Shown here piece after piece: positions 1-7,700 of a stretch of 7,700 bases of DNA. The first letter of the stretch is position 1. Each line of letters begins with the position of its first letter. The DNA is from a virus (Duplodnaviria > Heunggongvirae > Uroviricota > Caudoviricetes): IMG/VR virus record IMGVR_UViG_2728369185_000006. The stretch is one strand, 5' to 3'. The notes under the pieces were generated by a model. The model saw nothing but the letters and a program-made list of their open reading frames with translations, was not told the origin of the DNA and searched no databases. Both the position numbers and the translations under genes were made by a program.

Positions 1-574
1 CAGGGTTCGTAGGCCACTCAATATCAGGTGCAGTTGATGTATCAACACGGTTCAGCAACACCCGATACTTTTTCCAGGCTTCCAGCAATGAGGTTTCTTC
101 CTCCGTTGCAATTTCCAGATCTGCAGCATCCTGAAGCGGCGCAATATGCTCACTGGCTACCTGCATCAGGTTGTTTTTTGTTTCTTCCGCCTCCCGGATC
201 CGGAACATTTTTTCTGCTTCCGTATCCTTCACCCAGGCTGTGCCGTTCCACTTCTGAAACTCCCCTTCCGGCGATAACCAGGTAACATTTTCCGGTAACG
301 GACCGAGTTCAGAAATAAATAACTCGTCCCCTGACGCTACGTCATAAACCGTTTTACCCCGATGGTCTTCAACGAGATGCCACGATGCCTCATCACTGTT
401 GAAAACAGCCACAAAGCCAGCAGGAATATCTGGTGGTGCAATATCGGTACTGTTTGCTGGCAGACCTGTATGAGGCGGAATATATGCGTCACCTTCACCA
501 ATAAATTCATTAGTTCCGGCCAGCAGATTATAAATTTTTATGGTCCGTGCTTGTTCACTCATTCTGAATGCCAT
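1..574 (-). CDS. tfa: Tail fibre assembly protein Tfa, 3'-partial (about 191 codons in window; stop codon lies just beyond position 1)
   Basis: Minus-strand ATG at 574..572 opens a frame with no stop down to position 2. My translation begins [79 protein letters not shown] and ends DIEWPTNP, which matches lambda Tfa as I recall it almost residue for residue. Start overlaps the stf stop (TAATG). Absent from the ORF track because no stop codon falls inside the window. Confidence 0.9.
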
Positions 575-3500
575 TATGCAAGCCTCACAATATAGTTAAA
601 TGCGATGTTTTTGACGGTGTTTTCCGCGTTACCAGCAGCGTTAACGGTGATGGTGTGTCCATGTGAACCAATCGCAACGGAGTGCGTATGCGCACCAATA
701 CCTACAGTATGTGCATGTGCGCCAGAACTTGCTGCAGTACCAGACAGCGAGTGGGTATGAGCACCTGCTGACTGTGTCTGAATACGTTGATAATACGATC
801 TACGGGAAGAAGTCCCCGGGCTTACTTGATACTGTGAATCCTGGACATAAGTGAACCCACCGCCATCATAAAATGCTAACGCAGAACCGCCGCCTCCTGG
901 CCAACGAATACCATTACCATGAGTATGATCACCGGCAGACCCCGTAGAGCCACTCAGACTGTGCGTATGCGCCCCGGTGTTATTCGTGGATTTGGTTCCG
1001 TAATCAAACGACGATGTGTTTTTCGTCCCCAAATCCGTACTGGATGCGCTGGCGCTGTGGGTGTGCGATTTAATGCCGTCCTGTTCCTGAGACAATACGG
1101 CACGACCACTGGCGGGTTTGCCCTTAATCGTCCAGCCACGCATATCAGGGATCACGCCTGACGGATAAGCGGCTGCAAGTTTCGGGTATGCAGATTTGTC
1201 AAAAGTCTGCCCCTGCATCAGGGCATAGCCAGACGGAACGGTATCTGATGGCCACGGGATTGGTGCGCCAGGCGGATAAAACTGCTCTGATGGCGTATAG
1301 AGTGAATAAACTGTACCGTCCGTTAACCCTTCCGGCTTATTAGCAGAATATGCTGGTGACGTATGAATCGTCACGCTGGCATTACTGGTATAATCCCATT
1401 GAATATTTACACCAGTCGCATAATTTCCGATTGCAACGTAAATATCGTAAGTATCACCAGATGTATTGACCCAGGCAAAATTTGTAAACCCTGTCGATGT
1501 GCGCTGCCATAAAGCACCAGTAATCCCCTTCGGATTACCATTACCTGCACGCAAAACAAGTTCAGATATACCTGCCTGTTGAGGTGACCCCACGTTAAAT
1601 CCCGCACCACCAATCAACGTAATTGAAACAACAGAACTCGCCTGTGGCATGGTTACCGTTGCTAATTTGAACCAACCAGCACCACCGCTGAATGACATTG
1701 TTGTTGAGTTAAGCGTACCAATATCTTTCGGCGTCAGTGTTATATCCGCTGAAAGCGCCTTACCATTCACCTTACGGGCAGAAGGTACCCGACCATTCGC
1801 ATTATTATTAGCTGCTTTCACTGCTTTCGGTGTCGCGGCAAGCGTTTCAGATGCGCTGTTGGTTGCACTACTGAGCTGGACAATTCCTTTTTGTGCTGTC
1901 GTAGCGTCCTGAGCAGTATATTTCCCGTTAGCAAGGTCATAGGCTGCCTTTACCGACTTTGGCGTTGCCGCCAGCATTTCAGATGTGCTGTTGGTTGCAC
2001 TACTGAGCTGGACAATTCCTTTTTGTGCTGTCGTAGCGTCCTGAGCAGTATATTTCCCGTTAGCAAGGTCATAGGCTGCCTTTACCGACTTTGGCGTTGC
2101 CGCCAGCATTTCAGATGTGCTGTTGGTCGCGTTGCTAAGCTGAACTATCCCTTTCTGTGCTGTCGTTGCATCCTGTGCGGTGTATTTCCCGTTAGCCAGC
2201 TCATACGCGGCCTTAACGGCTTTTGGCGTTGCCGCCAGTGACTCGGAAGTGCTGTTAGTCGCACTGCTGAGCTGTACTATCCCCTTTTTCGTCGTGCTCG
2301 CATCCTCAAGCGCCACGGCGGATGCAATATCCTCTGCCCGTTTTGCCGCTGTCTCAGCGCGCGTTGCCGCGGATTCCGCCGTACTTTTGCTCTGAGCTGC
2401 CGCCGTCGCACTGCCAGCTGCCTCTGTCGCCTTCGTGGATGCCGTCGTGGCGCTGCCCTTTGCTGCTGACGCCTGTCTGGTCGCCTCATCTTTTGAAGCA
2501 GACGCAGATGATGCCGATGACGCCGCCGAACTGGCGGACGATGCGGCAGCCGTTTTTGAGGATTCTGCGCTGGTTTCCGACGCTTTCGCGTTCGTCTTGG
2601 ATGTCTTCGCTGCGGAAGCAGACCTCGCTGCTGCGCTGGCCTGTACAGCGGCTTCGCCAGCCTTCGTTGTGGCTGTTGAAGCAGACGATGCAGCACTTTC
2701 TGCCGATTTTCCGGCGGCGGTGGCACTGGCTGAGGCCTGCCCGGCACTTGTTGACGCGGCACTGGCAGATAATGCAGCCGCTGTTTTTGAGTCTGCCGCA
2801 GCTGAGGCGCTCTGTCCCGCTGCCGTTTCAGAAGACCTGGCGTTCGTCTCGGACGTTTTTGCCGCCTTCGCAGAATTTGCTGCCGCCGTTGCCGAGGAAG
2901 CTGCGCTGCTGGCGCTCGAGGCTGCGTTCGTTTCTGATGATTTTGCCGCCTCTTTTGAAGCCGACGCATCCCGTGCTGAAGTGGCTGCTTCTGACGCTTT
3001 CGTGGTCGCGGTGGATGCAGAAGTGGCTGCTGATTGTTGTGACGCTGCGGCATTCGTTTCTGACGTTTTCGCGGCACTGGCGCTGGTAGCTGCCGCGCTT
3101 TTTGATGACTCTGCAGCAGCAGCACTTTTTGCTGCTTCACGGGCCTTTGTCGATGCCGTTCCTGCGCTGGAAGACGCTGACTGAGCCGACGACGCGGCCT
3201 GTCCGGCTGACGTGCTGGCGGCACGTGCTGAGGCTGCAGCATCGGTTGCATGAGTTGCCGCCTCGCTGGCTGATGCACTGGCATCGCTGGCTGATTTTTT
3301 CGCGGCTGCCGTATTCTGTGCAACCGCGGAGGCGTTACGTGACACCTCTTCCACCATCTGCTCAAAGCGGCGCAGTGCCTCCGGTCGGACATCATCCTCC
3401 GTCATGGCACCGAGAAAATCATTCAGCGTACCTGGTCTGGAACCTTCATAGACGGTAATGGTCCCGGCATGTGAAGGCGGAAAACCTTCAACCAGCAGGG

Positions 3501-3681
3501 TGACGCTGTACTGACCATGCTCAACATCCATGCTGTAACGTCCGGCTTCATCCGGATTTTCAGAGGCCACCGTGTTCACCACCACCGTGCTGCTGGTTCG
3601 TCTGGCCTTCAGCACAATGGTGCAGTTCTGTACTGGTTTTCCTGTGCCATCTTTAAGCACGCCAGAAATTTTTACTGTCAT
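574..3681 (-). CDS. stf: Side tail fibre protein Stf, 1035 aa: lambda-like N-terminus, long Ala/Ser-rich stalk, four tandem 44-aa fibre repeats, distinct central domain, lambda/T4 gp37-like His-rich C-terminal tip
   Basis: ORF-track translation starts [22 protein letters not shown] and ends [31 protein letters not shown], both matching lambda Stf as I recall it. The C-terminal part carries [39 protein letters not shown] and repeated HxH motifs. GGTGGA lies upstream of the ATG. Stop TAA at 576..574. Confidence 0.92.
1796..2300. repeat. Tandem 132-bp repeats (about four units, two of them identical) inside stf, encoding the repeated [26 protein letters not shown] motif
   Basis: Positions 1861..1992 and 1993..2124 are identical over 132 bp by direct comparison. 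Diverged copies follow near 2125..2256 and flank the array. The protein shows [43 protein letters not shown] repeated. Confidence 0.9.
2300..3336. repeat. Low-complexity GC-rich segment encoding the Ala/Ser/Thr-rich Stf stalk (about 345 aa)
   Basis: Stf residues from about 116 to 460 are dominated by A, S, T, K and E, with recurring AAKTSETNA and [12 protein letters not shown] motifs. Boundaries are approximate. This segment generates the spurious overlapping ORFs 2277..3395(-), 2322..3089(+) and 2435..3184(+). Confidence 0.7.
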
Positions 3682-3692
3682 ACTTTTCCACC

Positions 3693-3727
3693 AATAAAAA
3701 AAGCCCGCAGCAGTGACGCCACGGGCT
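3693..3727 (-). terminator. Putative intrinsic terminator downstream of lom, immediately upstream of the stf ribosome-binding site
   Basis: Minus-strand reading AGCCCG-(14-nt loop)-CGGGCT followed by TTTTTTTATT. Stem at plus 3702..3707 and 3722..3727, A-run on plus 3696..3702. The stem is only 6 bp with a large loop, so strength is uncertain. Confidence 0.45.
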
Positions 3728-3832
3728 TCAGGACAGTGTAACTTTACGTTTCCTCAAACGCAGTTCACCCCATAAAGTGGATGAACCTGCGTATCATAAC
3801 AATATTTACAGAAGATAAATCGGCGTCTGTTG

Positions 3833-4432
3833 TCAGAAACGGTATCCGATACCAACAATAAATGCATCCGTTCGCCAGTCGCCACTACCGGAACCTTCAT
3901 AAGCAAGGTCAATGGTCACGGATTCGGTCGGGTTAAACTGCACGCCAGCCCCCCACGCCAGAGACGTGTTGCTGTGGCGACCGTCATCACTTCCGGTCAG
4001 CACATCGTGCGTTTTCCCCTTGTTGTCAGTTACGCGGAGATAATCCCCGGAGAAAGTCGACACACGGCTGTAAGCCACACCCGCCATCGAATACGCGCTG
4101 AACCATTCATTCACGCGTACAGACGGCCCCGCCATCACGCTGAACCAGCGGTTACGCACGGAATCTTCATGCCAGCGGGTATCGCTGTAGTGCGTTTTTT
4201 GCTCATCCTCAGCATTGGCATAACTGAAGGACGTAATCAGCCCCAGCGCGTCCGTAAACTCATAACGGTATTTCACGTTAATCCCGTTCAGATTATCGCT
4301 GCCGGGAGCGTTCGTACGGGCATGAAGATACCCCGCGCTCAGTGTGGACTGATGTTCAGACGCCCATGCAGGCGCACCGGATACGGACAGACAGATGGCT
4401 GCGGACAAAATGACTGCACAAACTTTACGCAT
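3833..4432 (-). CDS. lom: Lom outer-membrane beta-barrel protein (Ail/Lom family), 199 aa with an N-terminal signal peptide
   Basis: Translation MRKVCAVILSAAICLSVSGAPAWASEHQSTLSAGYLHARTNAPGSDNLNGINVKYRYEF ... DWRTDAFIVGIGYRF closely matches lambda Lom as I recall it, with a signal peptide and a C-terminal aromatic residue typical of outer-membrane barrels. It sits in the lambda lom position between J and stf. Confidence 0.9.
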   Translation of the reverse strand: MRKVCAVILSAAICLSVSGAPAWASEHQSTLSAGYLHARTNAPGSDNLNGINVKYRYEFTDALGLITSFSYANAEDEQKTHYSDTRWHEDSVRNRWFSVMAGPSVRVNEWFSAYSMAGVAYSRVSTFSGDYLRVTDNKGKTHDVLTGSDDGRHSNTSLAWGAGVQFNPTESVTIDLAYEGSGSGDWRTDAFIVGIGYRF

Positions 4433-4437
4433 AATTA

Positions 4438-4443
4438 CCTCTC
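4438..4443 (-). promoter_or_regulatory. Shine-Dalgarno sequence for lom
   Basis: Minus strand reads GAGAGG followed by TAATT and then the ATG at 4432. Confidence 0.5.
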
Positions 4444-4453
4444 GCTTTTCTGC

Positions 4454-4480
4454 AATAAAAAAGGCGCCATTTCTGGCGCC
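4454..4480 (-). terminator. Putative intrinsic terminator between the J stop and the lom start
   Basis: Minus-strand reading GGCGCCA-GAAA-TGGCGCC (perfect 7-bp GC-rich stem, 4-nt loop; plus 4463..4480) followed directly by TTTTTTATT (plus 4454..4462). There is no T-run on the plus-strand side, so the orientation is minus. Confidence 0.6.
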
Positions 4481-4499
4481 CGTATATGGGTTATAAAAT

Positions 4500-7400
4500 T
4501 CAGCTGATACTGATGCCTGCGGTGGCTTTCTTCATCACCACAACCAGCAAATCGCTGATACTTGCTGTGGGATACCAGTTATTCACCAGCCATGCTGACA
4601 CCGAAAACTCCAGCGTCATGTGGCCGCGACCAGCTGGCATATCAATAACACCACTGTAAATCAGCGTATTATCCAGCGCGGTACGGTTATAAATTTCAGC
4701 ACCGTTTTTCCGTACTATCAGGCGGCATGACGAATAAATATCGTTATTCTCCCGCTCATGTTTAGCGCCGCTGAATGCCACCGCCGGAATAACAATCTGC
4801 CGGTCAAACGGCTGATCGTCATAAACCCTGACGGTGATGGTCCCTGATGGCCACCGTTCCGGTGCACGGGAGTCCCGGGGGAAAGCTTTGCCCACTGTTT
4901 TAACGAGATCGCCTTCAATCTGGTTGGCGGACAATTTTCCCAGAACCCGACAGTTCTCGTTAATCGTGACGTTGTTGAGCGTCCCGGAGTTCGCATTCAC
5001 GTTACCGCTGATATCGGCATNNNNNNNNNNNNNNNNNNNNNNNNNNNNNNNNNNNNNNNNNNNNNNNNNNNNNNNNNNNNNNNNNNNNNNNNNCGGAGCC
5101 GTCAGGCGTTTCAGGAACACGTCGTTCATGAATATCTGATCGCCCTGACCAACAAACATCGGCTTTGTGTTGCCATTCGCAGGATTAATCATCGCAATCC
5201 GGTCAGCAGCCAGAAGCACCTGACTCTGCATACCTGCTGGCGTATTCTCAATACCGGCTCCGATACCCGCAATATAAAGGCGTCCGTCCTTCATCTGCTG
5301 CAGTTTCACGGCCCACATGCTGTTCAGGTTATTATTTGTATCAACCTGAACTTTCTGTATCTGCTGGATTGCCGCACTCTGGTCTTCCAGTTTTTTATTG
5401 ACGGTCTGCGTGATTTCATTGCTGACATTCGTAATGGACGTCCTGATTTCAGCCAGGTCCGGCGCAAGCTGACCGTTATCAATCTGCGTCCACAACTCCT
5501 GGGCCAGATGTGTTTTCCCGATTTCTCCTTTGAAAAAATCCAGGTAACCTTCCGCATCATCGCTCGCCCGACCGACAGCCTCCACGAATGCCGATTTGCC
5601 AACGGTGTTCACACTGCGAACGTAAAAATAATAATCATGGCCCGGTTTGATATTGATACTGGCGGCTATCCAGTACAGCGCCGTACCAAGATAGCGGGCT
5701 GTGGTTTCAACCTGCCTGATATCGGTAATCCGCTTTTCCGAGAACCAGAACTCAAACTGTACCGTCGGGTCATAAACAGCAAGATGCGGCGTGGCGGTTA
5801 TCTGAAAATAGCCCGGCGTCAGCTCAATCCTCGACGGTGCTGCCGGTGCGGCAATCCGGAACGATACCGACGCCGGATCGCCCTGCTGCCCCCGGGCATT
5901 TACCGCCCGGACTGTCAGCCTGTAGTTCCCCAGCGCCAGTTGCGTGAAGCGGTATGTGGTTTCCGTCGTCCGGGCCGTGCTGACCAGTCGCTCACTGCCG
6001 TCGTCCGCTGTTACGGTCAGACGGAGCAGGAAGCTCACGCCCTTCACCACCTTCGGTGTGTCCCATCGCGCCAGCACCTGATATTCCCCGCTGTCTGCAG
6101 TGACTTCGGCGGTCAGGTGCTGCACTGCTGGCGGCGTGACACCATTCACCGTGCCGCTCTGGTCACCGTNNNNNNNNNNCCCCTTCACCACCTTCGGCGT
6201 GTCCCAGCGCGCCAGCACCTGATATTCCCCGCTGTCTGCGGTGACTTCGGCGGTCAGGTGCTGCACTGCTGGCGGCGTGACACCATTCACCGTGCCGCTC
6301 TGGTCACCGTCAAAGTGCGCCCCGTTATCCACGATGGCTTCTTTCTCCGGTACATGCTGCACGGCGGTGATGGCATACGTGCCGTCATCGTTCTCACGGA
6401 TACTCACGCAGCGGAACAGGCGCTGGCGCAGCGTCGGCAGCTTCAGCCCCCACACGCTGTATTCTGCAACGCCGTCAGGAACACGGCTCACTTTCACCTT
6501 CACGCCGTCGGTGACGGACTGGACCTCCACGCTGACCGGATTACCCTGACCGTCAACCAGGCTTATCAGCGTGGTACCGGAGGATGGCAGCGTGATTTCA
6601 CGGTCGAGCGTCAGCGTCCGGGTCTGGCTGTTCACCGCCAGCACGCGACCACCGGTGCTGATACCGGCATAGTCATCATCGCAGATTTCAATGACATCGC
6701 CCGGTACATGGCGAAGCCCTTCAGCACCCACGCTGAAATCCACGGTCTGCGTCTCCAGCAGTTCCGTTTTAATCAGCCACAGCCCGGCGCGGTGTGCCTG
6801 CCCCCGGCTGGTACAGCCAAAGGCATCCATCTTCGTGACGTTACGACCGTAACGGGCAATGGCCTGCGTGTCCTCCACAAGCTCTGTCGCCGTCTCCCAG
6901 CCGTTATCCGGGTCAATCCAGTTCACCTCAACAGCATTATGGCGGTCTTTCAGGGCGCTGAAGCTGTAGCGGAACGGCGCACCATCATCCGGCATCACCA
7001 CATTACTGCGGTTATAGGTCCACACCTTATCCGACGGTCGGTCCTGCACGAACGTCAGCGTCTGCCCGTTCCATACCGGCATACAGCGCATCGCCGAGCA
7101 GAAATCACTGAGAACATCCCACGCCTTGCGCTGTGTGGTCAGCCAGGCATTACAGGTGATGCGCGGCTCCGTGCCACCAAAGCCATCCGGCACCGACTGG
7201 TCGCAATTCTGGCCGATGACATACAGCGCCCATTTGTCCACATCCGCCGCACCGAGACGCTTCCCCATGCCGTAGCGCGGATGGGTCAGCATATCCCACA
7301 GACACCAGGCCATGTTGTTGCTGTATGCTGGCTTAAACGTTCCGTCCCAGATACCGCTGTATTGCCGCGTCTGCGGGTTATAGTTCGACGGCACCTGCAG

Positions 7401-7700
7401 AATGCGCCCGCGAAGATGATAATTACGGCTCACCTGCTGGCTGCCGAACTGTTCCGAGTCCACCTGCACGCCGACCAGTGCCGTGTTCGGGTAGCACTGT
7501 TTCACATCGATGATTTCGGTGTATGACGACCAGAGCGTTTTGTTCTGCAGCTGGTCTGTGGTGCTGTCCGGCGTCATTCTGCGCATCCGGATATTAAACG
7601 GGCGCGGCGGCAGGTTATCCACCACCACCGAGGCCAGATACTGCGAGGTGGTTTTGCCCTTAATGGTGATGTCTTTTTCCGTCACCCAGCCACCGTTACG
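4500..7700 (-). CDS. J: Tail tip / host specificity protein J, 5'-partial (at least 1066 codons in window); interrupted by two N runs
   Basis: The minus-strand frame is open from the window edge to TGA at 4502..4500. The ORF-track start at 7685 is an internal GTG, and upstream codons to 7700 carry no stop. The C-terminal region ([35 protein letters not shown]) resembles the lambda J C-terminus as I recall it. Confidence 0.92.
5021..5093. other. Assembly gap (73 N) inside J
   Basis: Run of N in the sequence; appears as 25 X in the J translation. Confidence 0.99.
6039..6309. repeat. Direct duplication, 141-bp period (130 bp of sequence per copy), on either side of the 10-N gap; 3 mismatches, all synonymous in J
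   Basis: 6039..6168 and 6180..6309 align base for base except ggtgtg/ggcgtg, ccatcg/ccagcg and gcagtg/gcggtg. The J translation shows [43 protein letters not shown] twice, separated by XXXX. Confidence 0.9.
6169..6178. other. Assembly gap (10 N) inside J, flanked by a direct repeat
   Basis: Run of N in the sequence; appears as 4 X in the J translation. Confidence 0.99.

Follow-up and report, generated by a model that had tools for sequence, protein, structure and literature searches.

False duplications caused by genome mis-assembly, in which near-identical sequence is left unmerged, are a known class of error (PMC2864568, Kelley & Salzberg 2010; PMC9516828, Ko et al. 2022). When a false copy inflates a coding sequence, Ko et al. 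call it 'false exon gain' (PMC9516828). Gap handling at contig joins has also been described: SOAPdenovo2 inserted gaps between overlapping contigs, and ALLPATHS-LG reported negative gap sizes (PMC5368935). Here we analysed a 7,700-nt stretch of DNA, hereafter the window, in which the lambda-type gene J appears to carry an in-frame duplication of 47 codons around a run of 10 N. The duplication is almost certainly a scaffolding artefact, that is, an unmerged contig overlap bridged by a 10-N placeholder, with one of the two contig ends derived from a second J gene.

The J gene of the window is an ordinary lambda-type J. An open reading frame is listed for it at 4500-7685 on the minus strand, and the matching gene is annotated gpJ in closed E. 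coli genomes. In the closed version, the product of the gene (J1) has 1159 aa, compared with 1132 aa for the lambda gpJ chain in the PDB. Six gpJ Pfam families were found in J1 above their curated cut-offs (PF24801, PF13550, PF24421, PF24489, PF09327 and PF12421). The domains are FNIII-A_GpJ (residues 86-207), Phage-tail_3 (330-498), Ig_J (610-714), Ig_J_second (716-818), Phage_Tail_Tip (872-1000) and Ig_GpJ_C (1029-1159), so the Pfam set is full. Searched against the PDB, the J1 protein matched lambda gpJ chains (8iyk_J and others, 8k35) at E=0. The tail genes of the closed genome are ordered like those of bacteriophage lambda: tape measure, M-like, L, K (C40 peptidase), I, J, lom, stf and tfa. 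The window keeps the J-lom-stf-tfa part of this order, and its positions 5700-6700 are about 96% identical to lambda in DNA.

Base by base, the window was compared with the J1 locus of E. coli FDAARGOS_1297 (L002). It consists of three contigs, A, B and C, separated by two runs of N. The features are as follows, where J1 is the J gene of the first prophage and J2 that of a second one.

1-5020: contig A, with the tail fibre assembly gene, the side tail fibre gene (574-3681, minus strand), lom (3833-4432, minus strand) and the 3' end of J; exact match to L002 3001-8020.
4500-7700, minus strand: lambda-type tip attachment and host-specificity gene J; the C-terminal part lies in the window and the N-terminus off its right end; two assembly defects.
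5021-5093: second scaffold gap, 73 N, with 67 real bases in closed genomes and hence 6 nt too long.
5094-6169: contig B, the unique part of J1; exact match to L002 8088-9163.
6040-6169, minus strand: copy 1 of the repeat, the authentic J1 allele (J1 residues 607-649) and the copy to keep.
6170-6179: 10-N placeholder gap with no real sequence behind it; the true distance from contig B to contig C is -131.
6180-6310, minus strand: copy 2 of the repeat, being the first 131 nt of contig C; redundant with 6039-6169 and overlapping L002 9033-9163.
6180-6240, minus strand: J2-specific lead-in of contig C, with paralogue-specific bases at 6180, 6198, 6207 and 6240.
6180-7700: contig C; matches L002 9033-10553 with 4 mismatches, at the same four positions.
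6241-7700, minus strand: stretch identical in J1 and J2 in their alignment, a collapsed two-copy repeat.

A further reading frame was seen in this region. On the plus strand, 5508-7526 is an ORF of 672 aa antisense to J; in the closed genome this ORF has 625 aa. It shares the codon register of J, with (5508-4500) mod 3 = 0, and stays open because J there is free of TTA, CTA and TCA codons. Most likely it is a shadow ORF rather than a gene.

As written, the window holds a direct repeat of 130 nt (6040-6169 and 6181-6310) with 98% identity and a start-to-start spacing of 141, which is far above chance expectation. A preliminary description of this DNA had placed the repeat at 6039-6309; the repeat itself was recovered, one base further to the right. 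The same description had counted two 130-bp copies around exactly 10 N with three synonymous differences, and our re-measurement of the repeat and of the N run (6170-6179) gave the same values. Copy 1 ends at 6169, the last base ahead of the N run, and copy 2 begins at 6180 or 6181, the first or second base past it. Within the 130 nt the copies differ at 6057 and 6198 (T/C), 6066 and 6207 (T/G), and 6099 and 6240 (A/G). When the overlap is counted as 131 nt, a fourth difference is included at 6039 and 6180 (G/C), outside the 130-nt repeat. Each of these four differences falls on the third position of a codon of J (minus strand) and is synonymous, with the codon pairs GGC/GGG (Gly), ACA/ACG (Thr), CGA/CGC (Arg) and ACT/ACC (Thr). 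Both copies are translated into an identical 43-aa peptide, and the insertion of 141 nt, or 47 codons, keeps the J frame.

Closed chromosomes match the whole window at 100.0% (FDAARGOS_1297, FDAARGOS_1295 and AH21E028) or 99.9% (UTI89, NU14 and others). The span in the matching closed records is 7553 bp against 7700 bp for the window, and the excess of 147 bp is the sum of 141 at the 10-N junction and 6 at the 73-N gap. Contig B extends to L002 9163, and contig C already begins at 9033. The two contigs thus overlap by 131 bp on the reference, so there is no gap between them and nothing is missing. This is the join of overlapping contig ends with a placeholder that had been proposed from the repeat and the N run. 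All four mismatches of contig C to J1 lie in its first 61 bases. Removal of 6170-6310 gave an exact match to L002 8088-10553 (2466 nt) and recovered J1, whereas the alternative repair, removal of 6039-6179, leaves four synonymous J2 bases in place. The proposal that the true J is 47 aa shorter is thereby borne out: the closed J1 of 1159 aa carries the segment once, and the deletion restores it. At 7143-7144 the window reads CC, as does FDAARGOS_1297, compared with GT in the J1 of UTI89; the source of the window is thus nearer FDAARGOS_1297, FDAARGOS_1295 and AH21E028 than UTI89.

The origin of copy 2 is found at another J locus. When the right copy (6180-6310) was searched alone, 100% matches were obtained in 18 closed records, including FDAARGOS_1297, FDAARGOS_1295 and AH21E028, at the other J locus annotated gpJ. 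In FDAARGOS_1297 the two genes, J2 at 1821064-1824546 and J1 at 1972551-1976030, belong to separate lambdoid prophages with about 150 kb between them. Single closed chromosomes, including those of FDAARGOS_1297, UTI89 and NU14, carry J1 as well as the exact J2 allele. The J1/J2 variant sites in the overlap (L002 9033, 9051, 9060 and 9093) are exactly the four differences between copy 1 and copy 2, and contig C has 0 mismatches to J2. The suggestion that the two ends represent J alleles of two lambdoid prophages in one genome therefore agrees with these loci, the right copy being 100% identical to J2. We infer that both J genes are present in the source genome of the window.

J1 and J2 are identical over exactly 1460 nt (L002 9094-10553, L003 4062-5521, window 6241-7700). 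The next difference between them is at L002 10554, the would-be window position 7701, so that the window and the repeat share their final base. Contig B reaches 70 nt into this shared repeat, which starts at L002 9094. In contig C the two copies of the repeat are collapsed into one, preceded by 61 nt that are specific to J2. The right end of this contig falls exactly at the repeat boundary, as that of a de Bruijn repeat node would. Left of the junction, J1 and J2 are about 5-10% diverged over most of the region and far more at the receptor-binding 3' end, where the 305 differences over the whole gene are concentrated. The 1460-bp block looks as if the co-resident prophages had recently recombined here or undergone gene conversion, a case of ordinary lambdoid mosaicism.

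J-like places are numerous in E. coli, with a median of 2 and up to 14 per genome. In the search with the right copy, ST95-like genomes had 3 J-like places each; UTI89, NU14 and APEC O1 are presumably ST95. A 304-bp internal J fragment was seen in NZ_CP148426.1 (L004 1348-1650), inside a Qin-like prophage remnant, where the annotation calls it a 'J-related' pseudogene. It is flanked by a truncated tail fibre gene and nohA, and over the junction region it carries J2-like alleles. This J remnant may be the third J-like place per genome.

The number of copies was read from closed genomes and phages. Among the junction-spanning matches listed, about 118 in all, the query span exceeded the record span by 141 in every case, which corresponds to a single copy. 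These were the best 30 E. coli matches, 30 phage matches (including lambda, 434 and HK630), and 58 of 60 matches taken at even steps through the 4604 ranked closed E. coli records. The remaining two sampled matches do not cover the junction: H184 ends at query position 630, and H185 covers 33 nt. The comparison with closed lambdoid J genes that had been called for thus gave a single copy of the 43-aa segment in all of the listed matches across the junction. J1 and J2 each have the segment a single time, at residues 607-649.

The J duplication is not a biological feature, and the preliminary description's own alternative of a genuine in-frame duplication, here taken as a tandem one of 43-47 aa with a small unsequenced stretch between the copies, is extremely improbable. 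It would account for the preserved frame (141 nt being 47 codons) and for the purely synonymous differences between the copies. A length that preserves the frame (141 = 3 x 47) has to be put down to a 1-in-3 coincidence if the artefact reading holds, which counts against that reading. However, copy 2 agrees with J2 at all four variant sites, including 6180, which lies outside the 130-nt repeat. Both copies directly abut an N run of exactly 10, and the right-hand contig, a collapsed repeat, stops precisely where the repeat does. Of the Ig_J domain (610-714; 105 residues), the duplicated unit covers only the first 40 or so residues, about 40%, and it is therefore neither a foldable unit nor a sensible unit of duplication. 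No tandem two-copy J was present among the listed junction-spanning matches from closed E. coli and phages. A search for the junction pattern (copy end, any 10 bases, copy start) gave 0 matches in 185,579 species-representative genomes. Judging from the related closed genomes, molecules with both copies would be lacking in this isolate as well. A variant of the same idea takes the J2 identity of copy 2 into account: recombination between the co-resident J genes put a J2-derived copy beside J1 residues 607-649, and the 10 N stand for a short real junction. If true, the J protein would be longer by half an Ig-like domain; we give this variant next to no credence.

The other two possibilities leave the artefact in place and concern where the second allele came from and what was joined. 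It is highly improbable that the second allele came from a mixed culture or a contaminating near-identical strain, although the preliminary description had named a mixed population as one possible source. The window alone is equally compatible with two genomes, but single closed chromosomes (FDAARGOS_1297, FDAARGOS_1295 and AH21E028; UTI89 and NU14) carry J1 together with the exact J2, so a mixture is unnecessary, and the limits of the repeat in contig C are in keeping with two paralogues residing together. Very unlikely, too, is a harmful chimeric misjoin, in which contig C comes from prophage 2 and the 5' part of J from that prophage was fused to the distal tail genes of prophage 1. Such a join is what the mismatch counts of contig C would suggest, with 0 to J2 against 4 to J1. 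However, 6241-7700 is identical in both prophages, so that contig B followed by contig C is valid for prophage 1. Beyond the repeat, where the scaffold breaks off, nothing specific to prophage 2 follows, and without 6170-6310 the sequence equals J1. The suspicion that the scaffold is chimeric at this join is thus upheld in a weak sense for 6180-6240, which is J2-specific and redundant, and fails for 6241-7700. Chimerism is confined to these 61 redundant bases, and past the join there is no wrong sequence inside the window.

Unmerged contig ends, one of them from J2, could have arisen in the following way. The window would be a short-read scaffold from an E. coli draft genome close to UTI89, NU14 and FDAARGOS_1297, with at least two lambdoid prophages whose J genes share the 1460-bp exact block. 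The assembler probably failed on this repeat and left contig B, running 70 nt into it, and the collapsed contig C with its 61-nt J2 start. A scaffolder would then have joined B to C, probably via read pairs, in an order that is right for prophage 1. The gap estimate was presumably non-positive, and the minimum of 10 N would have been written. The 131-nt overlap of the ends may have been left unmerged because of the four paralogue-specific bases that differ. The outcome would be a false insertion of 141 nt (47 codons) that is in frame by chance. The true J1 path would pass from ...GGTCACCGT (6169) directly into CAAAGTGCG (6311).

The left end of contig C deserves separate mention. Contig C starts at 6180, on a variant site and 61 nt before the repeat, and the comparison of J1 with J2 revealed no feature that accounts for this. 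The Qin-type remnant was considered as the cause, and it makes no boundary there. A k-mer length of 71, suggested by the 70-nt run of contig B into the repeat, was also rejected, since the left end of contig C misfits a simple de Bruijn node. Possible reasons for the start at 6180 are a peculiarity of the assembler or, in the source genome, a third copy of J.

The 73-N gap is the other defect in J. The 67 bases behind it encode J1 residues 965-987 (23 aa) of the Phage_Tail_Tip domain, and they are absent from the J2 locus. The overestimate of 6 nt keeps the frame and makes J 2 aa too long at this place. Since 73 N were written for 67 real bases, the gap sizes in the scaffold are estimates, which fits 10 N as a floor value. 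On the right, the final base of the window is also that of the J1/J2 repeat, and this is thus probably a true scaffold end. The left end (window 1, L002 3001) lies 2-11 nt from the point where homology to other tail fibre assembly genes starts in many genomes; this is suggestive of a repeat boundary, if not an exact one. All 7700 bp of the window may thus make up one small scaffold with a repeat at either end.

In conclusion, an annotation of J as written would exceed the true length by 49 aa, of which the false duplication contributes 47 and the oversized 73-N gap 2. Such a gene might be taken for a host-range determinant with an expanded domain. The remedy for the junction is removal of window 6170-6310; it is a matter of data quality only, with no biological consequence. 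The case provides a clean, resolved example of how paralogous prophage genes lead to false in-frame duplications in bacterial draft scaffolds. It resembles the published false duplications in that near-identical copies abut a gap, small differences blocked their merging, and a coding sequence was inflated. The published vertebrate cases usually involve diploid haplotypes, whereas the two versions here come from paralogous J genes, carried by two prophages of one haploid bacterial chromosome. Compared with the collapsed repeats of mosaic lambdoid prophages in E. coli short-read assemblies, the window shows the expected behaviour and nothing unusual.
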